Part shown: piece after piece, positions 11,138 to 27,655 of the stretch
Position numbering within the stretch: position 1 is the stretch's first letter
Layout of the letters: the number at the start of each line of letters is the position of its first letter
Assembly: GCF_000010625.1 (NCBI RefSeq)
Contig: NC_010296.1
Coordinates: forward strand, 600,001-632,000
DNA length: 32,000 bases
From: Microcystis aeruginosa NIES-843
GTDB lineage: Bacteria; Cyanobacteriota; Cyanobacteriia; Cyanobacteriales; Microcystaceae
Direction: 5' to 3'
Translations under genes and position numbers: made by a program
The notes under the pieces: model-generated
Told to the model about the DNA's origin: nothing
Seen by the model: the letters and a program-made list of their open reading frames with translations, nothing else
Databases searched by the model: none

Positions 11138-11910
11138 TCACTCACCGAAATACAGGTGAACCAGATTGCTCGTCCAGGTTGCCACCCCCGTGCCGAAAAA
11201 ATCCGCGTCTTCCGTCCAGATCGGGCATTCCAGCAATAAAGCCAGCGCCACGACTGGCCAATCGTCCACATCCCGCGCGGCGATGCGTTTTCTAGCCTCC
11301 CCCTCGTAAGAAGCGTACAGGCTGTTATCCACGATCCGCACCCAACCGGTCAAACCTTCCAAGACTGCCATCGCGTCCTCGCTCCCTAGGTCGCGTTTCT
11401 CGAAAAGAATCGGTAAATATCGCCTTGCGTCGGCGTAACAGCGATCGGTCGTGAAAAAATCTACCGTGGGAGCGAACCGAGCGATCATCGGAAATTTTGG
11501 GTCTGAAACCCCGCCGTTCTAGGTTGGCTTTACGTTAGAATTAAAAGGCCAGTCTCGAAAACCAAGTGGACGGCGCAGCACCTTGAAAACTCGGCTTAGG
11601 GGGTTCCGACCAGAAAAGCTTGGCCGGGTAAAAAGTCGCGCGCAACAAGTACAAGAAGCTATAGGCGGTCAACGTACCGTGGGACACACGGAATCGGGCT
11701 TCTGAAATGGGGCGAAAGTCTGTGGACTCTGTGTAAGACAGTACATGGTTTTTTAACTGTGGTATGCGACGGTGGTGGAAGCAGAAACTTAAATCGTGAG
11801 GTTTAGGAATCGCCGCACTTTTAGGGCGGCGAGGATGTCAACTCCCGTACCTTTTTCCCCAACACGGCACGGATGAGAATATTGGCATCCAGAACGATTC
11901 TTTTCGTCAT
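11138..11910 (-). pseudogene. PIN-domain (VapC-like) toxin gene split by a 353-bp insertion
   Basis: The ATG at 11910 gives MTKRIVLDANILIRAVLGKKVREL, then runs into TAA at 11823-11821. The 116-aa ORF 11488-11138 (IARFAPTVDFFTTD...DVDDWPVVALALLLECPIWTEDADFF) lies in another frame. Deleting 11486-11838 rejoins them into a 139-codon PIN ORF. Confidence 0.75.
11486..11838. mobile_element. 353-bp non-coding, hairpin-rich insertion of unknown class (possible IS200/IS605-derived PATE or orphan guide-RNA-like element, or an intron-like RNA)
   Basis: The ORF track has no ORF of 60 aa or more here. There are no terminal inverted repeats, and TCA sits at both junctions on the + strand. Hairpins: TCGCCGC-N9-GCGGCGA (11810-11832), 6 nt from one end; CCGTG-ggaca-CACGG (11677-11691); AGTC-tgtg-GACT. 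Several GAAA/GAAAA loops occur on the + strand. Confidence 0.5.
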
Positions 11911-11920
11911 GGCAGAAAGC

Positions 11921-12175
11921 CTAACGCTCGCCTTCGCGGAGTTGACGGAATTCGCGAACGAGCGCATCTTCAGAAAGTCCCTGTTCCCGTAAAAGCGCAT
12001 CCAACCTCTCGGCGGCGCGTTTTAACCCATCGATCTCCGCTTCCGATGGCTCCGGTCGTGCCGGTAAGAAATAACCCACCGTCTGACCCTGGCAAGTGAC
12101 GGCGATGGGAGTAGTAGAACTCAAATATTTGGCGAGATGATCCCGGAATTCTCCCATTCCGATTTTTTCTAGCAT
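11921..12175 (-). CDS. Phd/YefM-like antitoxin (intact), upstream partner of the split PIN gene
   Basis: The N-terminus GEFRDHLAKYLSSTTPIAVTCQGQTVGYFLP fits the Phd/YefM fold pattern, and the C-terminus is a charged helix. Its stop lies 10 nt before the PIN ATG. Confidence 0.7.
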   Translation of the reverse strand: MLEKIGMGEFRDHLAKYLSSTTPIAVTCQGQTVGYFLPARPEPSEAEIDGLKRAAERLDALLREQGLSEDALVREFRQLREGER

Positions 12176-17176: not shown

Positions 17177-18118
17177 ATGAACTTTTTTCATACTGAAGAC
17201 CATCTCCAACAGTTCGGTACAGATATTTTAGAAACAACTTGGCGAGAATTTCCCCAATTAGCTCAAGAACAAATCGCCCTAACTTGGATAGTATATGATC
17301 CTCCCGTTATCGTCAACACGGGGGGAGCAATTTCTCACGAAGAATTCTGGAAATATTCCCCCCGCGGATTTAGTTATCGAGGACAAGAAAGAACCTATCC
17401 CGCTAGTTTAGTGAAATTATTTTATCTAGTAGCGATTCATGAGTGGTTAGAAGGGGGAATGATTCCCGAAAACACCGAATTAAATCGCGCCATTCGTGAC
17501 ATGATTGTTGACTCTAGTAATGATGCTACCAGTTTAGTTGTAGATCTGGTTACGGGAACCACTAGCGGTCCAGAAATTGCCGCCGGTCCCTTTGAAACTT
17601 GGAAGCAACAACGCAACATAGTTAATCGTTATTTTCAATCCCTAAATTGGCCAGAATTAGCGACAATTAACGTTAATCAAAAAACTTGGTCTGATGGTCC
17701 CTATGGACGTGAACGCGCTTTTTTAGGGGAATTAATGGAGAATCGCAATATGTTAACTAGCAATGCAGTGGCGCGTTTAATTCATACTATTATCGGGGGG
17801 ATTGCGGTTTCTTCCCAACGTTCCCAGATGATGATGTCTTTACTAAAACGTAGTCTTAATCCTGCTGATTGGACAAGTCAAGGAGATGAGACACAAATCT
17901 TAGGATTTCTGGGACAAGGATTACCAGAAAATAGTCAAATTTGGTCAAAAGCTGGTTGGACAAGTCAAGTGCGTCACGATGCAGCCTATATTGAAATTCC
18001 CCATCATACTCCCTATCTCTTGGTGGTATTTACCGAGGGAAAAGATAACAGTCAAAATCGCTCAATTTTACCTTTTATTTCCCAGAAAGTAGCCGAGAAA
18101 ATTATGCAGATCCATTAA
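17177..18118 (+). CDS. Class A beta-lactamase-related serine hydrolase
   Basis: An S-x-x-K motif (PASLVKL), an SxN-like motif (DSSNDAT) and a KxG motif (SKAGWT) in the expected order and spacing. Confidence 0.65.
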   Translation: MNFFHTEDHLQQFGTDILETTWREFPQLAQEQIALTWIVYDPPVIVNTGGAISHEEFWKYSPRGFSYRGQERTYPASLVKLFYLVAIHEWLEGGMIPENTELNRAIRDMIVDSSNDATSLVVDLVTGTTSGPEIAAGPFETWKQQRNIVNRYFQSLNWPELATINVNQKTWSDGPYGRERAFLGELMENRNMLTSNAVARLIHTIIGGIAVSSQRSQMMMSLLKRSLNPADWTSQGDETQILGFLGQGLPENSQIWSKAGWTSQVRHDAAYIEIPHHTPYLLVVFTEGKDNSQNRSILPFISQKVAEKIMQIH

Positions 18119-18414
18119 TTAAGCTGTGGGTAGGATGGTTTTCTCTGTCATTGCCAAAAGTGCTAGATAAACATCCTACTGCAATAAATCCGTAAATTTA
18201 CCGATGTGCATCTCAATATACAGCTTTTCTGGGATAGATGGGGTTCGTTCTTGCAGCTGAAATACTTGATTAAGTAAGGATTTAGTCTGTGCTTCACCTT
18301 GACGGGAAAGGCCGTCATCATTTAAACTAACAATAAGTTGTTGTTAAGTAAGTAGTCGGAGATAAATTCTGTTGTCTATCTTAAGAAATGTAAATTACCA
18401 CAATTCTTACTTAG

Positions 18415-18446
<32 letters not shown>

Positions 18447-18496
18447 TACCCCACAGTTAACTTTACTTTTGTCCAACTACTTATTTCCTCAAATGT

Positions 18497-19846
18497 GTGA
18501 CTTTCAACCCTCACCATTGTCATAACGAAAGGGAAGTGGAGAGTAAATTAATTGTCCAGTATTTACTCCCCAAACTAGGCTACAATGCCGAACATTGGTA
18601 TCAACAAGTTAGCTTCGGTAAAGTACGCTTAGATTTCCTTGTTTCCGCTCAAAAACCTATCAACAAAAAGCAGTTTTTACCCTCTCACTGTCTAATTATC
18701 GAAGCTAAAAACCCCAGAGAAAAGCTCATCAATCATCGTCACCGCTTAGGTTATTATCTCGACTACTTTAAAGTGCAGTGGGGATTATTAACCAATGGTG
18801 ATGAGATTCAACTTTATCGAAGAAAACCCGATAAAATTTATTTAGTTTTTAGATGTTCTGGGTTAGAAATTGCCGCTCACTTAGAACAGTTAAAATCTCT
18901 GATTGGCTACGAAACTTTATCCCTGGGTATTCCACCGCTCAATTCTCCAATAATCAACCACAGAAACCCCATGAAAACCATCGCAATTTATCATCATAAA
19001 GGTGGTGTTGGTAAAACCACCGTCGCTACCAATCTAGCGGCAGCTTTGAGTAAAAAAGGCAAGCGAGTTTTATTAATTGATATTGATGCTCAAGCGAATA
19101 GTACCTTTGCCGTTGGTTTAATTAAGTTTCAATTCGATGATGACGATGATTTAAAAGATAAAAATGTCTTTCATTTGCTAGATAACAGTAACCGCATTTT
19201 TATTGAGAATATCGTCAGAAAGTCTCAAGGATTCAATCATCCAGAAATTGATGTTATTCCCTCTCACATATCTTTAATTGCTAACCAAGCTAAAATTAAA
19301 GATAATGCAGCGGTATTTGCTAGATTGGCAAGAAAATTAGAGAAAGTAAATGATCAATACGATATTGTAATTATTGATGCACCTCCCGCACTTGATTTAT
19401 ATGCACGCATTGCTTTAATTGCAGCTGATTATCTGATAATTCCTTCAGATCTTAAACCATTTTCTAATCAAGGATTAGATAGCGTTAAAAACTTTGTTCA
19501 AGAGGAAATCAATGAAAGTCGTGGAGATTTGGGTAAACCAACACTACAAATTTTAGGCGTTTTACCTTCCAAAATTTCTACCCACGCTCAATACTTAAAA
19601 TATAATTTCCCCAAACAAAAACAAGTGATTCCAGACAAGTATGGTTTACCCTTGATGGAATCAATTATCTCGGAAAGAATGCCTTTATCTCGCTGTATAA
19701 ATCAATACGTTACTGTGGGAGATTTAGAAATTCCTGCCCCCCAATCTATAATCGATTATGCCGAACATCAAGCTGATGCGGGAGTGTCAGCAGCAGAATT
19801 TGAAGCCTTAGCACTGGAAGTTTTAGCTAAAATAGGAGTTAAATAA
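18497..19846 (+). CDS. Fusion protein: N-terminal restriction-endonuclease-like (HSDR_N-type PD-(D/E)xK) domain plus a ParA/Soj-family ATPase
   Basis: Residues 1-158: NEREVESKLIVQYLLPKLGY, RLDFLV (D46), IIEAK (E69, K71) and GLLTNGDEIQLY, a typical HSDR_N layout. Residues 159-449: MKTIAIYHHKGGVGKTTVATNLA (deviant Walker A), LLIDIDAQANST and IVIIDAPPAL. The annotated start is GTG. An internal ATG at 18971 would give a plain ParA. Confidence 0.7.
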   Translation: MTFNPHHCHNEREVESKLIVQYLLPKLGYNAEHWYQQVSFGKVRLDFLVSAQKPINKKQFLPSHCLIIEAKNPREKLINHRHRLGYYLDYFKVQWGLLTNGDEIQLYRRKPDKIYLVFRCSGLEIAAHLEQLKSLIGYETLSLGIPPLNSPIINHRNPMKTIAIYHHKGGVGKTTVATNLAAALSKKGKRVLLIDIDAQANSTFAVGLIKFQFDDDDDLKDKNVFHLLDNSNRIFIENIVRKSQGFNHPEIDVIPSHISLIANQAKIKDNAAVFARLARKLEKVNDQYDIVIIDAPPALDLYARIALIAADYLIIPSDLKPFSNQGLDSVKNFVQEEINESRGDLGKPTLQILGVLPSKISTHAQYLKYNFPKQKQVIPDKYGLPLMESIISERMPLSRCINQYVTVGDLEIPAPQSIIDYAEHQADAGVSAAEFEALALEVLAKIGVK

Positions 19847-20536
19847 ATGTGGAAATTTTTACGAGTCGATATTACTGATATTAATCCTTCTGTTCCCAGA
19901 GAAACCTTCTCCGAAACTGAATTGGAGAATTTAGCCAATCTTATTATTGAAATGGGTGGACTTATTCGCCCTGCTATTCTCAAAAAAGCTGATAATAAAA
20001 AAGTTGATGAACGTTATAATCTTATCAGTGGAGATTTAGAATATTATGCTTCTGTTATCGCCAATCAGAAAGTTCCTGACATCGAGATGATTAACGCTTT
20101 TGTGGTTGATAAAGAAGCGGAGAATATCGCTTTACAGCAAATACAGTTATTATCTCCTTCTCCTGGGTTAATTACCACGCCTGAAAAAACAGATAATCCT
20201 CTAGAATTGAGGGTGAGTAATCTTGAAAAACGATTAGAAACCCAGTTACAAGCAATCCGAGAGGAGTACCAAAAAGAAATCAAAAGACTGGAAGAAAAAA
20301 TTATTATTCTTCCTCCTCCTCCTCCTGCTTCTAAGTCGATTTTAGAGCTTTTGAATACCTGTGATGCTAATCAACTTAAAAAAGCGGGAATTCCACCTGC
20401 ATCTGTTAATGACTTTCTGAAAAAACGTTCAGAAAAGCCCTTTGATTCTTTGGAAGATGTCCTAAATCGCCCGGTGTCAGGAGTTAAAGAGAAAAGATTA
20501 ATTAAGCTTGTCGATTATTTGCTGACTTCTAACTGA
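19847..20536 (+). CDS. ParB-N-terminal-domain-like protein with a degenerate arginine patch, coiled coil, poly-Pro linker and a C-terminal helix-hairpin-helix
   Basis: LRVDITDINPSVPRETFSETELENLANLIIEMGGLIRPAIL...YNLISGDLEYYAS aligns to ParB box I/II, with GDLEYYA in place of GERRxRA. It is followed by PPPPP and then LELLNTCDANQLKKAGIPPASVNDFL...FDSLEDVLNRPVSGVKEKRL (HhH-like). The ATG abuts the parA stop (TAAATG). Confidence 0.6.
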   Translation: MWKFLRVDITDINPSVPRETFSETELENLANLIIEMGGLIRPAILKKADNKKVDERYNLISGDLEYYASVIANQKVPDIEMINAFVVDKEAENIALQQIQLLSPSPGLITTPEKTDNPLELRVSNLEKRLETQLQAIREEYQKEIKRLEEKIIILPPPPPASKSILELLNTCDANQLKKAGIPPASVNDFLKKRSEKPFDSLEDVLNRPVSGVKEKRLIKLVDYLLTSN

Positions 20537-20543
20537 TTTTTTA

Positions 20544-20571
20544 GGGTGTGTTGAGCTACTTTAACACACCC
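20544..20571 (+). terminator. 9-bp stem hairpin just after the parB-like stop (GGGTGTGTT-N10-AACACACCC); duplicated at 21612-21639
   Basis: Perfect 9-bp stem with no trailing T-run. It is conserved in both tandem units. Confidence 0.4.
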
Positions 20572-20590
20572 TACCGATGGATGTTATAAT
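20561..20590 (+). promoter_or_regulatory. Sigma70-like promoter candidate for Uma2 copy 1 (TTAACA-N18-TATAAT); copy 2 equivalent at 21629-21658
   Basis: The -35 TTAACA (20561-20566) overlaps the hairpin 3' arm, and the -10 TATAAT is at 20585-20590. The same arrangement is conserved in the second unit. Confidence 0.4.
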
Positions 20591-20643
20591 AATGGAAGAT
20601 CAGGAGAAATTGCTGATCCGATAGCGGGCAAAGATTAACTAAG

Positions 20644-20789
20644 TAGGTAGGTGTTAAAAATTGTCAGACACCCCCCTTATCAAGGGGGGCAGGGGGGATC
20701 CCCCCGCCTATCGGCACCCCCCTTAATAAGGGGGGCAGGGGGGATCAAGGGCAAAATCTATCTTCTATTTAACTAGAAACACTTACCTA
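20644..20789. mobile_element. 146-bp MITE with 12-bp TIRs (TAGGTAGGTGTT / AACACTTACCTA) containing two ~33-bp CCCCCCTT-N3-AAGGGGGG hairpin units
   Basis: It is present in the leader of Uma2 copy 1. It is absent from the otherwise colinear leader of copy 2 (21700-21712), which acts as an empty site. Confidence 0.7.
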
Positions 20790-20814
20790 GAAGACGGGTG
20801 AAAAGAGAAAACTT

Positions 20815-21513
20815 ATGACAACTACCCCAGTAATAGCTGCTTCTTTAACAATTCCTCCCCTAGAAAACGGCGATAAATTAACTCGATGGGAATTTGAACG
20901 ACGTTATCAAGGGATGCCCCATCTCAAAAAAGCGGAATTAATTGAAGGAATTGTTTATATGGCATCTCCCCTCAGATTTGAAAGTCACGCCGAGCCTCAT
21001 GCTAATATTGTCGGATGGTTAGCTCTCTATAAAGCGGCGACTCCAGGTGTTAGATTGGGTGATAATGCCACCGTGAGATTAGATATTGATAACGAACCCC
21101 AACCGGATGCCCTATTAAGAATTGACAAGGGAGGACAATCAACAATTAGTCAAGATGATTATGTAGAAGGTGCGCCGGAATTAATTGTCGAAATTGCCGC
21201 TTCTAGTGCTTCCTACGATGTTCATCAAAAATTAAATGTTTACCGTCGCAATCAAGTCCAAGAATATCTAGTCTGGCGGTTTTATGAACAAGAAATTGAT
21301 TGGTTTCGACTACAGGCAGGAGAATATATTAAACTAGAACCCGATAGTGATGGCATAATGCGCTCCCAAATCTTCCCCGGTTTATGGCTAGATAAAAACG
21401 CTTTATTAATGGGCGACTTAGGAAAAGTTTTAGTGATTTTACAGCGAGGGTTAGAGACACCAGAACATCAAGATTTTGTTAATAAATTAACTAGCGATCG
21501 CTCTCAAGTTTAA
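20815..21513 (+). CDS. Uma2-family (DUF820) PD-(D/E)xK endonuclease, copy 1
   Basis: AELIEGIVYMASP, the PQPDALL (D) and PELIVEIAASS (E) motifs, then HQKLNVYRRNQVQEYLVW (K...Y..G/Q.EY.W): the Uma2 layout. Confidence 0.8.
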   Translation: MTTTPVIAASLTIPPLENGDKLTRWEFERRYQGMPHLKKAELIEGIVYMASPLRFESHAEPHANIVGWLALYKAATPGVRLGDNATVRLDIDNEPQPDALLRIDKGGQSTISQDDYVEGAPELIVEIAASSASYDVHQKLNVYRRNQVQEYLVWRFYEQEIDWFRLQAGEYIKLEPDSDGIMRSQIFPGLWLDKNALLMGDLGKVLVILQRGLETPEHQDFVNKLTSDRSQV

Positions 21514-21550
21514 AAATTAGATAATTATTTTCTCTCAAGTGTTCTATAAT

Positions 21551-21604
21551 ATGGGAGAAAAAACTTTGCTCAAATTAATGGATTATTTATTGACTTCTAA
21601 CTGA
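21551..21604 (+). pseudogene. Relic 3' end of a second parB-like gene (MGEKTLLKLMDYLLTSN*)
   Basis: It aligns with the last codons of 19847-20536 (EKRLIKLVDYLLTSN*) at lower identity. It is followed by a near-identical copy of the 130-bp spacer. Confidence 0.6.
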
Positions 21605-21730
21605 TTTTTGTGGGTGTGTTGAGCTACTTTAACACACCCTACCGATGGTTGTTATAATAATGGAAGATCAGGAGAAATTGCTGATCCGATAGCGGGCAAA
21701 GATTAACTAGAGGGTGAAAAGAGAAAACTT

Positions 21731-22423
21731 ATGACAACTACCCCAGTAATAGCTGCTTCTTTAACAATTCCTCCCCTAGAAAACGGCGATAAATTAACTC
21801 GATGGGAATTTGAACGACGTTATCAAGGGATGCCCCATCTCAAAAAAGCGGAATTAATTGAAGGAATTGTTTATATGGCATCTCCCTTGAGAATTACCCA
21901 ACATGGTGAACCCCACGCGCATATTATGTTATGGTTGGGTTTTTATAAAGCTTTTACCCCCTATCTGCAATTAGGGGATAATTGTACTGTGAGATTAGAT
22001 ATTGATAACGAACCCCAACCGGATGCCCTATTAAGAATTGACAAGGGAGGACAATCGACAATTAGTCAAGATGATTATGTAGAAGGCGCGCCGGAATTAA
22101 TTGTCGAAATTGCCGCTTCTAGTGCTTCCTACGATGTTCATCAAAAATTAAATGTTTACCGTCGCAATCAAGTCCAAGAATATCTAGTCTGGCGGTTTTA
22201 TGAACAAGAAATTGATTGGTTTCGGCTACAGGCAGGAGAATATATTAAACTAGAACCCGATAGTGATGGCATAATGCGCTCCCAAATCTTCCCCGGTTTA
22301 TGGCTAGATAAAAACGCTTTATTAACGGGGGACTTAGGAAAAGTTTTAGTGATTTTGCAGCGGGGGTTAGAAACAGCAGAACATCGAGATTTTGTCAATC
22401 AATTAACTGCCAATCACAGCTAG
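21731..22423 (+). CDS. Uma2-family (DUF820) PD-(D/E)xK endonuclease, copy 2
   Basis: Same motifs as copy 1. The first 52 aa and residues ~87-200 are identical or nearly so, and residues ~53-86 are replaced. Confidence 0.8.
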   Translation: MTTTPVIAASLTIPPLENGDKLTRWEFERRYQGMPHLKKAELIEGIVYMASPLRITQHGEPHAHIMLWLGFYKAFTPYLQLGDNCTVRLDIDNEPQPDALLRIDKGGQSTISQDDYVEGAPELIVEIAASSASYDVHQKLNVYRRNQVQEYLVWRFYEQEIDWFRLQAGEYIKLEPDSDGIMRSQIFPGLWLDKNALLTGDLGKVLVILQRGLETAEHRDFVNQLTANHS

Positions 22424-22438
22424 ATTTTAAAATTAGAC

Positions 22439-22683
22439 GGGTGCATCTCACATTTGCAGAAATACCGACAATCAGCAATTATCAGTGACTCTTAAATTAT
22501 TACAAATATGTCAGCAGCTGCGTGTAAGCATCCCACCGAAAAACTAATGCGCTCCGGGGTTTGGGGGGTAGAACCCCCCAAAAGCTTGGATTGAGTGATA
22601 AAATCGGAAGTAATACCAATTTTAGAAGATAGTTTCCCTTTAAAAATCCCAACTCAGTAGATTGATAAAAATCAGATGCACCC
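22439..22683. mobile_element. 245-bp MITE with TIR GGGTGCATCT(C/G)A and an 8-bp target-site duplication AATTAGAC
   Basis: Left end GGGTGCATCTCA at 22439-22450; right end TCAGATGCACCC at 22672-22683. It is flanked by AATTAGAC at 22431-22438 and 22684-22691. Confidence 0.8.
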
Positions 22684-22805
22684 AATTAGACAATTATTCT
22701 TGATCCACTGTCCTATAATGACAGAAAGAGTATTTTTGACTTGAATTTGTTCTTAACTGTACCCCAATAATCTCGCCCCTGATAATCTTCTCTTCACCTC
22801 ACTAT

Positions 22806-24230
22806 ATGTCAAATCTAATCCTTTTCTGGCATCGTCGCGATTTACGTCTCTCGGATAATATTGGACTGAGTAAAGCTAGGGAGCGTAGTCCGAAAATTAT
22901 CGGGGTTTTCTGCCTCGATCCTGCTATTTTAGAAGGGGATGATATTGCCCCTGCTAGAGTTGCCTATCTCCTCGGTTGTCTAGAGGAATTAGAAAAAAAT
23001 TATCACCAAAAAGGTAGTCAATTACTGATTATTCGCGGCAACCCCAGTCAAACACTCGTCAATTTAGCTGGCAATTTATCGGCAAAAGCAGTTTTTTTTA
23101 ACCTCGATATCGAACCCTACGCGCGTCAACGGGATCAACAGGTAATCGCCGCTTTACAAACAAAAGGAATTGAAGTAGAAACCTTCTGGGATCAACTTCT
23201 CCACGCTCCAGGGCAAGTCCTCACCCTCTCAAAAAGTCCCTACACCGTATATACTCCTTTTTGGAAAAATTGGAGCCAATTAGCCAAAGCCAGCCCCAAA
23301 ACCCTAGAAAACCTGCAAGGATTAGACGAAAATGAGGGGGAGAAACTCACAGAAACTATTAATTTACCAACCCTAGAAAATTTAGGTTTTACCTGGCAAA
23401 ATCCCTTACCCCTCACCCCCGGAGAAAAGGCCGCCCATAGCAGATTAGAAGAATTTTGTCAAGGGGTTATTAACAATTATCAAGAAGATCGTAACTTCCC
23501 CGCTTTCGATGGCACCTCGCGCTTGAGTGCCGCTTTAAAATTTGGGGCGATTGGCATTCGCACAATTTGGACGGCAACCCTAGAGTTATTAGAAAATTGC
23601 TGCGCCCAGGAAGCAAAAGATAGTATTATCACTTGGCAGCAAGAATTAGCTTGGCGGGAATTTTACCAGCATTGTCTCTATTTTTTCCCAGAATTGGCGG
23701 TCGGTGCTTATAGAAAAGAATTTCGTCATTTTCCTTGGCAGGATAACGAAGAACATTTTCAAGCTTGGTGCCAGGGAAAAACCGGCTATCCGATCGTTGA
23801 CGCGGCGATGCGACAATTAAATGAAACGGGATGGATGCACAATCGTTGTCGCATGATCGTGGCGAGTTTTTTAACCAAAGATTTAATTATTAACTGGCAA
23901 AAAGGCGAAAAATACTTCATGCAGAAACTTTTTGATGGCGATTTAGCCGCTAATAATGGTGGTTGGCAGTGGAGTGCCTCTAGTGGCATGGATCCGAAAC
24001 CTTTAAGAATTTTTAACCCCGCTAGTCAGACACAAAAATTCGATCCGGAAGGGGAATATATTCGTCAATGGTTGCCGGAATTAGCTTCCGTAGATACGGA
24101 ATATTTAGTAACTGGGAAAATCCCCCGTTTAGAAAGACATCGTTGTGGTTATCCTGAGCCAATTGTCGATCATAATCAACAACAAAAAGAGTTCAAACGA
24201 CTCTATAGTAATCAGAAGCCAAAACGGTAA
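22806..24230 (+). CDS. phr: Deoxyribodipyrimidine photolyase (class I CPD photolyase)
   Basis: [44 protein letters not shown] and [13 protein letters not shown]. Confidence 0.9.
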
Positions 24231-26902: not shown

Positions 26903-27023
26903 GTGGGGTGTGGGGAGTGGGAAGTGGGGAGTGGGGTGTAGGGTGTGGGGTGATGGGGAAGTGGGGAGATGGGGTGTAGGGTGTGGGGTGTAGGGTTTTA
27001 GGGTTTTAGGGTTTTAGGGTTTT
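26903..27023 (+). repeat. G-rich degenerate heptamer array (GGGGTGT/GGGGAGT variants) ending in (AGGGTTTT)x4
   Basis: It abuts the RND start codon. Exact 8-mer units lie at 26992, 27000, 27008 and 27016. Confidence 0.9.
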
Positions 27024-27082
27024 AGTGGAAATTACTCTATCTCCCCATTACCCTATTCCCCCATTTTCCTATCCCCTTCTCA

Positions 27083-27124
27083 CTGATAACTGATAACTGA
27101 TAACTGATAACTGATAACTGACTC
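27083..27124 (+). repeat. Tandem heptamer (CTGATAA)x5 plus one CTGACTC unit
   Basis: Exact units from 27083 to 27117, then the variant at 27118-27124. Confidence 0.9.
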
Positions 27125-27603: not shown

Positions 27604-27655
27604 GAAAGAGGGTGTGGGGTGTGGGGTGTGGGGTGTGGGGAAGAAAACCTCTTTC
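27604..27655. repeat. 8-bp stem (GAAAGAGG / CCTCTTTC) enclosing (GTGTGGG)x4
   Basis: The arms are 27604-27611 and 27648-27655, and the heptamers span 27612-27639. It lies about 50 nt downstream of the trpD stop. Confidence 0.8.

Follow-up and report, generated by a model that had tools for sequence, protein, structure and literature searches.

The 32-kb window considered here, which is the whole stretch of 32,000 nucleotides from position 600,001 to 632,000 of the chromosome of Microcystis aeruginosa NIES-843, carries at 18497-20536 a translationally coupled operon of two genes. The first encodes a ParA-type ATPase with an N-terminal nuclease domain of the PD-(D/E)xK type, and the second encodes a ParB-like protein ending in a helix-hairpin-helix (HhH) type domain. 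This two-gene core is a genuine, undescribed variant of the ParA/ParB-like systems. The pair is probably a chromosomally inherited, ATPase-gated DNA-handling machine of the nucleoid, with two adjacent Uma2 nuclease genes and several miniature inverted-repeat transposable elements (MITEs) lying outside the unit. An earlier note on this stretch, made from its letters alone, had described the same genes, albeit as parts of a larger candidate cassette of four genes. The positions of the features are compiled in Table 1.

Table 1. Features of the nuclease-ParA/ParB-like operon and of its surroundings, in window coordinates
Feature	Position	Strand	Evidence or remark
Nuclease-ParA fusion gene, 449 aa, GTG start	18497..19846	+	HsdR-N-type PD-(D/E)xK domain, variable linker, Soj-like ParA ATPase
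PD-(D/E)xK (HSDR_N_2-like) domain, aa 1-140 of the fusion	18497..18916	+	Invariant residues, AF2 model, Foldseek
Putative catalytic residues of the fusion	D46 18632-18634, E69 18701-18703, K71 18707-18709	+	Alignment
ParA/Soj deviant Walker A ATPase core, aa 159-449	18971..19846	+	AAA_31, E 6.6e-52
Walker A motif KGGVGKTT, signature lysine K168	18998-19021	+	Invariant
Allele-variable block of the ParA core, co-varying with the ParB-like N-domain	19112..19561	+	Microcystis strain comparison
ParB-like partner gene, 229 aa	19847..20536	+	Start abuts the fusion stop (TAAATG)
ParB/Srx-fold N-domain, aa 1-102	19847..20152	+	ParB_N, Foldseek
Box II position, G62-D-L-E65-Y66-Y67-A68 in place of GERRxRA	20030-20050	+	Family alignment
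Long single helix, aa 118-152, presumed to form a dimerising coiled coil	20198..20302	+	AF2 secondary structure
C-terminal five-helix HhH-type domain (ComEA-like), aa 165-228	20339..20530	+	HHH_3, AF2
Copy 1 of the tandem duplication, from the final 49 nt of the parB-like gene through leader and Uma2a to some 40 nt of 3' flank	20488..21555	+	Direct repeats, single-copy strains
Leader copy 1: hairpin 20544-20571 overlapping promoter-like TTAACA-18-TGnTATAAT 20561-20590	20544..20590	+	
Uma2 PD-(D/E)xK gene, copy a, 232 aa	20815..21513	+	Pfam Uma2 108.0 bits (cut-off 27), E 4.9e-31
Relic of the parB-like 3' end, opening duplication copy 2	21556..21604	+	Direct repeat
Leader copy 2: hairpin 21612-21639, promoter-like site 21629-21658	21612..21658	+	
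Uma2 gene, copy b, 230 aa	21731..22423	+	Pfam Uma2 102.8 bits (cut-off 27), E 2e-29
MITE-like insertion, 131 bp: terminal inverted repeats, internal TCCTGAC x4.6 heptamer array	18351..18481	.	Absent from other Microcystis loci
G/C-rich insertion, 141 bp: two CCCCCCTTnnnAAGGGGGG hairpins, splits leader copy 1	20642..20782	.	Absent from other strains
MITE, 245 bp: terminal inverted repeats GGGTGCATCTCA / TCAGATGCACCC, just after Uma2b	22439..22683	.	Absent from other strains

In an alignment of 20 cyanobacterial homologues of the fusion, D46, E69 and K71, which the earlier note had assigned to an HSDR_N/PD-(D/E)xK site, are invariant; the same holds for T99-N100-G101-x-E103 and for E11, E13, E15 and K17. 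The N-terminal starting residue is likewise the same throughout this alignment, and the linker between nuclease domain and ParA core is variable, comprising roughly 20-70 residues. The Pfam profile HSDR_N_2 matches the fusion of the window at aa 17-113 with 19.9 bits, which is under the cut-off of 25, while homologous fusions pass it with 27.5-33.0 bits (e.g., 33.0, 32.3, and 30.7); PF13588 is precomputed for most of the database relatives. In the AlphaFold2 (AF2) model the domain follows the alpha-beta-beta-beta-alpha-beta order of PD-(D/E)xK nucleases, with a helix at 11-26, strands at 34-40, 43-51 (which holds D46) and 65-69 (E69, with K71 next), a helix at 77-91 and a strand at 95-99. The top Foldseek matches in the PDB are BpuSI, HsdR of EcoR124I, a restriction-endonuclease-domain protein and TT1808; when the PDB was searched by sequence with the profile of the domain, the sole match was a designed repeat protein, which was judged spurious. 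The nuclease fold with its conserved catalytic residues is, by this evidence, a real domain of the fusion, for which nuclease activity is predicted.

The earlier note had conceded that the nuclease domain might not be translated if the true start were the ATG at 18971. The best 120 database relatives of the fusion are nearly all full-length proteins of 440-540 aa, aligned with 99-100% coverage in the large majority; they include members of Microcystis, Crocosphaera, Nostoc, Anabaena, Nodularia, Calothrix, and Symploca. Since full-length conservation is seen across the phylum, the fusion is translated from the upstream start. With the profile of the N-domain, just 380 representatives are found at E <=1e-3 among 1.84 billion proteins. 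All ten of the distant matches tested (434-556 aa) are ParA (AAA_31) proteins with the match at their N-terminus, and HSDR_N_2 is detected in seven of them (E <= 0.001). The named distant fusions are cyanobacterial (Myxacorys, Thermosynechococcaceae), and the D/ExK/TNG residues are kept in most of them. One gene of Myxacorys almedinensis has two records (P0491 / P0492), one giving a 507-aa 'AAA family ATPase' and the other a 322-aa 'ParA family protein'; the nuclease domain can therefore be lost in public annotation. Occasional loss of this kind and the generic labels given in databases are part of the reason why the pair has apparently been overlooked.

The remainder of the fusion is an ATPase of the ParA/Soj family. 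The ParA/AAA_31 match spans aa 159-339 with 176.5 bits (cut-off 27), and CbiA matches the core with 67.5 bits (cut-off 25.4). K168, K173, D195, D197 and D294, which belong to the Walker A, A', and B motifs, are invariant in the 20 homologues. The closest structures are those of the chromosomal Soj proteins of Helicobacter pylori and Thermus thermophilus, and the equivalog cut-offs of NCBIfam are missed (ParA_partition, 85.9 versus 180 bits; plasmid RepA, 77.8 versus 348; SopA, 46.3 versus 725). Members of the ParA/Soj family undergo ATP-dependent dimerisation on non-specific DNA, and their partner proteins stimulate hydrolysis.

The junction of the two genes was reproduced as first read, the partner starting where the fusion ends. 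ParB_N matches the partner at aa 5-79 with 31.3 bits, over the cut-off of 26.3, and the AF2 model, built on a 50-sequence family alignment (pLDDT 80), falls into three parts, namely the N-terminal fold, the long helix, and the five-helix domain. Foldseek relates the N-domain to ParB, Noc, KorB, PadC, and sulfiredoxin (Srx), each with prob 1.00. The C-terminal domain is covered by the full HHH_3 profile, albeit at a weak 17.1 bits; the family profile matches the HhH-containing AF1531 (E 1.1e-5), and among the homologues some are assigned PF12836 or named 'ComE-like DNA-binding protein'. The region of the long helix varies in length across the family, and the 635 named profile matches of the partner are all cyanobacterial; a Microcystis annotation names protein Q8YXU5 of Anabaena PCC 7120 as similar to it. 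Profile searches thus place ParA, ParB_N, and Uma2 above their cut-offs, with HSDR_N_2 and HHH_3 as weak matches in the window itself.

In two respects the partner departs from ParB proper. The ParB-fold survey bioRxiv 10.1101/2025.10.10.680097 describes the Box II motif GERRxRA as the part of ParB that binds cytidine triphosphate (CTP). In the partner, G62, E65, Y66, and Y67 are invariant among 50 family members, which are devoid of arginine at the Box II positions; because GERRxRA is replaced by G-D-L-E-Y-Y-A, CTP clamping is unlikely. Moreover, no helix-turn-helix (HTH) family was found in the partner by Pfam scan, and neither Pfam nor the model shows a ParB C-terminal domain, whose place is taken by the long helix and the HhH-type domain; TIGR00180 reaches 24.6 bits, under its cut-off of 58.45.

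That the pair might constitute an ordinary chromosome-partition ParABS system with an unusual ParA extension is suggested by the relatedness of the core to chromosomal Soj, by the order parA then parB-like with translational coupling, and by the database label of the partner, 'chromosome partitioning protein ParB'. Against this stand the missing GERRxRA motif, central HTH domain for parS binding and ParB C-terminal domain, and the result that the parS consensus TGTTNCACGTGAAACA has no match in the 32-kb window, even with up to 3 mismatches allowed. Besides, the two deeply divergent types of the pair described below are swapped within genera, unlike core partition genes, and according to a review the classical ParA/B/S mechanism is missing from cyanobacteria (PMC7766704). 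A plain partition system is, hence, an improbable explanation.

The linkage of the two genes is strict. A scan of the GTDB species, each represented by a single genome, for peptide patterns of the N-domain yielded at least 467 stretches encoding it, the best 80 of which were analysed; these loci (numbered with the prefix L) are all cyanobacterial and represent about 25 genus-level groups. All 80 encode the N-domain as a fusion to a ParA core, and all have the ParB-like gene directly downstream, at gaps of -4 to +6 nt with a single gap of 56 nt. The tight coupling of the degenerate ParB/HhH protein to the fusion, proposed in the earlier note, is thus general among these loci; the surroundings are of housekeeping character and do not form a defence island, for which the earlier note had proposed a check. 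No further gene family or cluster occurs in more than 28 of the 80 loci. The flanks are syntenic within orders and contain housekeeping-like genes, such as those for a fatty-acid desaturase, a pyridoxal-phosphate-dependent enzyme, a dihydroxy-acid-dehydratase-like protein, glycosyltransferases, RecQ, and photolyase. Eleven Microcystis loci were compared, and those with enough flank have a common backbone of 4'-phosphopantetheinyl transferase, a beta-lactamase-like protein, the fusion, the ParB-like protein, zero to two Uma2 proteins, photolyase, and a resistance-nodulation-division (RND) transporter. The window, which is part of the Microcystis chromosome, also encodes peptidyl-tRNA hydrolase, fumarase, a GCS2 ligase, glycosyltransferases, and TrpD.

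As noted earlier, plasmid and replication genes are absent from the window, as are defence-island genes, and the pair does not belong to any plasmid or prophage partition module in the collections searched. Among 72,556 PLSDB plasmids neither the fusion nor the ParB-like gene was found, the only related entries being four stand-alone HsdR-N proteins of Phaeobacter with 29% identity; in 50,697 phage records neither gene was found, matches being none or of 28-29% query coverage; and neither was found on IMG/VR contigs. PADLOC-DB 2.0 gave no system-level match for the pair and no match of any kind for the ParB-like protein; on the fusion, PDC-M28B gave a weak match of 37.8 bits to aa 156-257, i.e., the P-loop alone. 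A literature search returned no description of the nuclease-ParA fusion or of its ParB-like partner, so that the earlier statement that no named system with this architecture is known stands.

The two genes vary in concert. Over the allele-variable block of the ParA core (aa 205-355), the window shares 96-100% nucleotide identity with four Microcystis loci (L003, L004, L008, L022) and 54-90% with four others (L001, L002, L006, L007). In the latter four strains the ParB-fold block at 19832-20101 diverges as well (56-71% nucleotide identity), while the nuclease domain, the ParA C-terminus, and the flanks are 88-100% identical, mostly >=92%. Within Microcystis the ParB-like gene as a whole is hypervariable, at 46-93% identity. 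Over all 80 loci the ParA cores form two major clusters of 31 and 41 loci, and species of Crocosphaera, Nostoc, Chlorogloeopsis, and Tolypothrix occur in both. Two Chlorogloeopsis loci (L015 and L018) share 96% identity in the N-domain, 55% in the ParA core, and 38% in the ParB-like protein, their flanks being mostly 84-98% identical at the nucleotide level; for two Nostoc loci (L060 and L073) the respective values are 94%, 55%, and 39%. Conversely, Chlorogloeopsis L018 and Tolypothrix L045, which are of the same type in different genera, share 80%, 85%, and 74%. In sliding windows, nucleotide identity falls from 90-98% to 40-66% at the boundary of linker and ParA core and recovers past the parB-like stop, the loci compared having identical neighbours.

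Clusters of the ParA core agree with those of the ParB N-domain (adjusted Rand index 0.75 phylum-wide) but not with those of the nuclease domain (0.18), which tracks taxonomy in the manner of a vertically inherited gene. Because of this co-variation and of the type switches at one and the same locus, ParA core and adaptor, i.e., the ParB-like partner, behave as one matched, exchangeable, ancient cassette. This argues for a specific interface between the ATPase and its adaptor and for selection that keeps alternative types.

From these features we infer the biochemical steps and the biological role of the pair as follows. ATP-bound ParA would dimerise on nucleoid DNA as other ParA/Soj proteins do, and dimerisation would bring together two linker-tethered nuclease domains on the DNA. 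The adaptor, bound to DNA by its HhH domain, would contact the ParA core through its ParB-fold domain and elicit ATP hydrolysis, release, and resetting of the cycle. If dimerisation pairs the nuclease domains and the adaptor triggers their release, DNA cutting, or capture of DNA by the nuclease fold, would be gated by the ATPase cycle. The role would most likely lie in a chromosomal DNA transaction of polyploid bacteria, such as nucleoid organisation or the handling or processing of chromosome copies, and not in a mobile defence island; such a DNA-handling role is favoured because the conservation of the pair is vertical, syntenic, and embedded among housekeeping genes.

Several observations weigh against this interpretation. 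Confidence in the AF2 model of the N-domain is medium (pLDDT 73), and its Foldseek matches are weak (E 8e-3 to 4e-2, TM 0.40-0.46). That the HhH domain binds DNA regardless of sequence is an assumption taken from its family. The survey covers the best 80 of 467 matches, obtained with two exact peptide patterns. A plain positioning system would not be expected to have a ParA protein whose nuclease active site is strictly conserved, and a polymorphism of two cassette types is the pattern usually met in conflict or self/non-self specificity. Finally, two unrelated lineages have Uma2 after a ParB-like gene, perhaps not by pure chance, and a triad of exonuclease, AAA-ATPase, and a third gene adjoins the pair, complete or in part, in eight loci.

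A chromosomally fixed conflict system remains the main rival because the nuclease site is intact and the cassette is polymorphic. In such a system, which would act against plasmids or phages or in self/non-self DNA discrimination, the ParA protein would serve as a nuclease effector gated by ATP, with the ParB-like protein sensing on DNA or regulating it. The family-wide conservation of the catalytic triad would be in keeping with this, as would two ancient, co-varying types exchanged within genera, as is usual at specificity loci shaped by balancing or frequency-dependent selection, the hypervariability of the ParB-like gene in Microcystis, the weak PDC-M28B match on the P-loop, and the recurrence of nuclease-type neighbours (Uma2; the exonuclease/ATPase triad). 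Defence systems are, however, normally patchy and mobile, while the pair holds a syntenic chromosomal position among housekeeping genes in many orders, was not found on the plasmids, phages, and viral contigs searched, and has an N-domain that follows taxonomy; a system-level PADLOC match is missing, and PDC-M28B is confined to about a hundred residues of the ATPase. We therefore regard a conflict function as rather unlikely, albeit less so than the other alternatives, and retain the ATPase-gated DNA-handling machine as the preferred explanation.

A further-reaching proposal, which is tentative, is that the pair represents an ancient machine, so far found in cyanobacteria only, in which the ParA cycle gates a restriction-type nuclease on the nucleoid, the adaptor has exchanged the chemistry of the CTP clamp for a coiled coil and an HhH domain, and two old ATPase-adaptor 'idiomorphs' are kept within genera by recombination and balancing selection. 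If true, this would imply chromosome-encoded discrimination of self and non-self DNA, or of chromosome copies, in polyploid cyanobacteria and, hence, a new kind of ParA system.

Compared with known systems, the pair resembles Soj/ParA and Spo0J/ParB in having a deviant Walker A motif with the signature lysine and an immediately downstream, translationally coupled partner of the ParB/Srx fold. It differs in the 140-aa PD-(D/E)xK domain on ParA and in a partner that possesses a coiled coil and HhH domain in place of the CTP-binding arginines, HTH, and C-domain of Spo0J/ParB. ParA proteins of type Ia plasmids (P1 ParA, F SopA) have an N-terminal, DNA-contacting HTH extension for operator binding. 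The ParA of the pair likewise has an extra N-terminal domain, which is, however, a restriction-endonuclease fold with intact catalytic residues; and unlike these proteins, the fusion family is found on no PLSDB plasmid. With HsdR of EcoR124I and BpuSI, its best fold matches, the fusion shares the layout of D...ExK and a TNG-type motif and the joining of a nuclease to an NTP-driven or regulatory module; its module is a ParA dimerisation ATPase and not a superfamily 2 translocase or methyltransferase, and no methylase or specificity subunit was seen among the neighbour genes of the pair in the window and the loci.

The fold of the partner's N-domain is shared by Noc, KorB, PadC, and sulfiredoxin. 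Noc, KorB, and PadC retain nucleotide-binding motifs and, except for PadC, an HTH, whereas the partner has the invariant G-x-x-E-Y-Y-A and a C-terminal HhH domain. Reuse of the ParB fold outside chromosome segregation is reported in the ParB-fold survey, and the architecture of the partner is not described in the passages of it that were searched (bioRxiv 10.1101/2025.10.10.680097). In cyanobacteria, McdA/McdB likewise pairs a ParA-family ATPase with a small coiled-coil protein that evolves fast and is encoded downstream (PMC7182216). McdA (6noo) matches the ParA core less well than Soj (E 1.3e-11 vs 8e-21); McdB does not have the ParB fold and McdA does not have a nuclease domain, unlike the pair, and no carboxysome genes are present in the window. 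Specificity-group signalling loci with co-varying interacting segments are exemplified by the agr groups of Staphylococcus aureus and the pneumococcal pherotypes. There, as in the pair, deeply divergent types of two interacting products are exchanged at one syntenic locus with conserved flanks; these are signalling systems, while the partners of the pair are an ATPase and a predicted DNA-binding adaptor.

The management of chromosome copies is a gap in the understanding of polyploid cyanobacteria, which are said to be devoid of classical ParABS (PMC7766704), and the widely conserved pair may bear on it. A nuclease-bearing ParA, if the gating proposed here holds, would extend the ParA/MinD ATPases from positioning to ATP-gated DNA processing. 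The polymorphism of two types lends itself to testing the specificity between ParA and adaptor and raises the question of which selection keeps both.

The Uma2 genes downstream of the pair have a history of their own. Both open reading frames (ORFs), the hairpin leader preceding each, and the relic of a parB tail before copy b are present as the earlier note had read them. A direct repeat of 154 nt (20488-20641 versus 21556-21709) is 90% identical and consists of the 49-nt end of the parB-like gene and the leader; a second repeat, of 300 nt, covers the 5' parts of both Uma2 genes. The 28-nt leader hairpin has exactly two occurrences, with none expected. In single-copy strains the sequence after Uma2a (21515-21550) runs into the window DNA past the MITE, from 22684 onward. 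On these alignments the repeat is an ordinary tandem segmental duplication, whose left edge falls within the 3' end of the parB-like gene and whose right edge lies some 40 nt beyond the Uma2 stop; the junction of parB tail, leader, and Uma2 is repeated indeed, without being the special heritable unit that had been proposed. Uma2a and Uma2b form a mosaic, the first 300 nt being 86% identical and the remainder nearly identical; over 20815-21095 and 21731-22011 they diverge mainly around aa 54-85. In other Microcystis strains a-type and b-type Uma2 genes are found in either order or singly, a pattern which suggests gene conversion among copies.

Each Uma2 copy of Microcystis is preceded by a promoter-like site with 11/12 matches and an extended -10 element. 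The leader folds better than shuffled sequences (z = -3.3); it was considered as a regulatory RNA, and the simpler reading is an end-of-operon hairpin that overlaps a promoter. Searches of Rfam were negative, both for 18100-22900 (E up to 1) and for the whole window (gathering score), and no tRNAs were found; the leader corresponds to no known RNA.

The idea that fusion, ParB-like protein, and Uma2 nucleases make up one four-gene defence cassette, moved as a unit between MITEs, was largely refuted by the neighbourhood survey. While phmmer with the Microcystis Uma2 detects Microcystis only, a Pfam scan of neighbours and an iterated hidden Markov model (HMM) reveal divergent Microcoleus-type Uma2 proteins of 285 aa. 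By the iterated HMM, Uma2 is present in 24 of the 80 loci (nine Microcystis, 15 Microcoleus-type) and absent from 56, which represent about 20 genus-level groups. The two lineages share 31% identity over 67 aa only and are, for this reason, not orthologous. Uma2 copies number zero to two, and in both lineages several strains have truncated copies, mere relics, or none; for instance, Microcystis L003 keeps the leader and about 40 bp of Uma2. The contig of L005 ends at the parB-like gene, so that this locus does not bear on the presence of Uma2. The promoter-like site of each copy and the strain-specific nature of the MITEs, whose flanks are collinear in all Microcystis strains, speak against a common unit, too, as do the many contexts in which Uma2 occurs in cyanobacteria, with 15-17 copies in 2.6-Mb genomes (PMC9403480) and, in Microcystis, also inside CRISPR clusters (PMC11855584).

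In favour of such a cassette, Uma2 lies directly after the ParB-like gene in nine of the 11 Microcystis loci and after a second ParB-like paralogue in about 15 Microcoleus-type loci; two of the 24 Uma2 genes (L034 and L038) are located 6-8 kb from the pair. In loci without a downstream Uma2 none was seen elsewhere, except for one weak candidate about 6 kb downstream in Pseudanabaena L072 (E 1.7e-4, relaxed search); and the two Uma2 proteins of the window match the single-gene PADLOC candidate PDC-S03 (E 2e-14 and 3e-15). Taken together, the four-gene cassette has little probability left. Uma2 is concluded to be a dispensable, tandemly duplicated accessory neighbour, separately transcribed from its predicted promoter, and its recurrent association with ParB-like genes, which is weak, may nevertheless be real. 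For genome scans it follows that multi-copy nuclease genes and MITEs adjoining one another in Microcystis can mimic a 'cassette'.

The second ParB-fold paralogue, of about 362 aa, is found downstream of the pair in 24 Oscillatoriales loci (L020-L075; e.g., L028:12700-13788, L042, and L066). In it, ParB_N (E 3.7e-4) is joined by a long coiled coil and, at the C-terminus, a Rho_N/SAP-like domain; GERR is missing here, too. In Microcoleus, this gene is followed after about 63 bp by Uma2.

The repeats and MITEs around the genes are real as well, but they do not bracket them; they are insertions seen in the window within otherwise continuous intergenic DNA. Alignments of other Microcystis strains jump from 18350 to 18482. 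The inverted arms of the first element lie at 18346-18365 and 18467-18486, and both the first and the third insertion have terminal inverted repeats exactly at their borders. The CCCCCCTTnnnAAGGGGGG motif of the second insertion occurs in the window only within 20642-20782. As the genes between and outside the three insertions are collinear in all Microcystis strains, the MITEs delimit no mobile unit; by this comparison, the insertions are specific to the strain of the window and lie outside the system. A mobile element or cargo cassette spanning 18.3-22.7 kb, for which the MITE-like elements at either end would speak, is thus refuted by the empty sites of the other Microcystis strains examined, in which all three insertions are missing from collinear genes. 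The flanking MITEs differ, moreover, in their terminal repeats, and the pair occupies syntenic positions across cyanobacterial orders, so that this explanation deserves hardly any credence.

The first MITE sits 15 bp upstream of the GTG start of the fusion and could affect its expression. Its heptamer array is one of six across the intergenic DNA of the window (among them 1212-1236, 18415-18446, 26903-27121, and 27610-27640), with units ACCCCAC, TCCTGAC, GTGGGGT, ACTGATA, and GGGTGTG. Similar arrays closely precede the fusion gene in Microcoleus (AATCTAA) and in Dapis (AACTGAT), which was judged coincidental; a conserved control element upstream of the start was ruled out, the arrays being scattered and that of the window lying inside a strain-specific MITE.

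Other genes accompany the pair in some lineages. A plain ParA-family gene is located upstream on the opposite strand in Nostocales and Oscillatoriales loci (one each in L015, L018, L045, L054, L059, L064, L069, and L076; two in L033); the encoded proteins of 291-310 aa are 27-30% identical to the fusion core and do not have the nuclease domain. In L023, L042, L054, L056, L059, L064, L066, and L069, up to three downstream genes on the opposite strand are arranged tail-to-tail with the pair. Their products are a DEDDh 3'-5' exonuclease to which a Cas4-like, Cys-rich C-terminus is fused, an ATPase of the AAA_16/KAP type with about 665 aa, and an unassigned protein of about 280 aa. The triad is complete in L023, L042, L054, L059, L066, and L069; the contig of L056 does not contain the gene for the ~280-aa protein, and in L064 the ATPase gene is present twice and the exonuclease gene is missing. 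PADLOC gave domain-level matches alone on the triad and on other neighbours. In two Crocosphaera loci (L013, L035), the gene that comes directly after the pair, in the same orientation, encodes a full-length RecQ helicase. Elsewhere in the window, a G+C-rich kilobase on the minus strand (11138-12175; 53% versus about 41%) holds a PIN-like ORF of 116 aa and a Phd/YefM-like ORF of 84 aa, as judged by eye from the translations, and looks like a horizontally acquired toxin-antitoxin pair.

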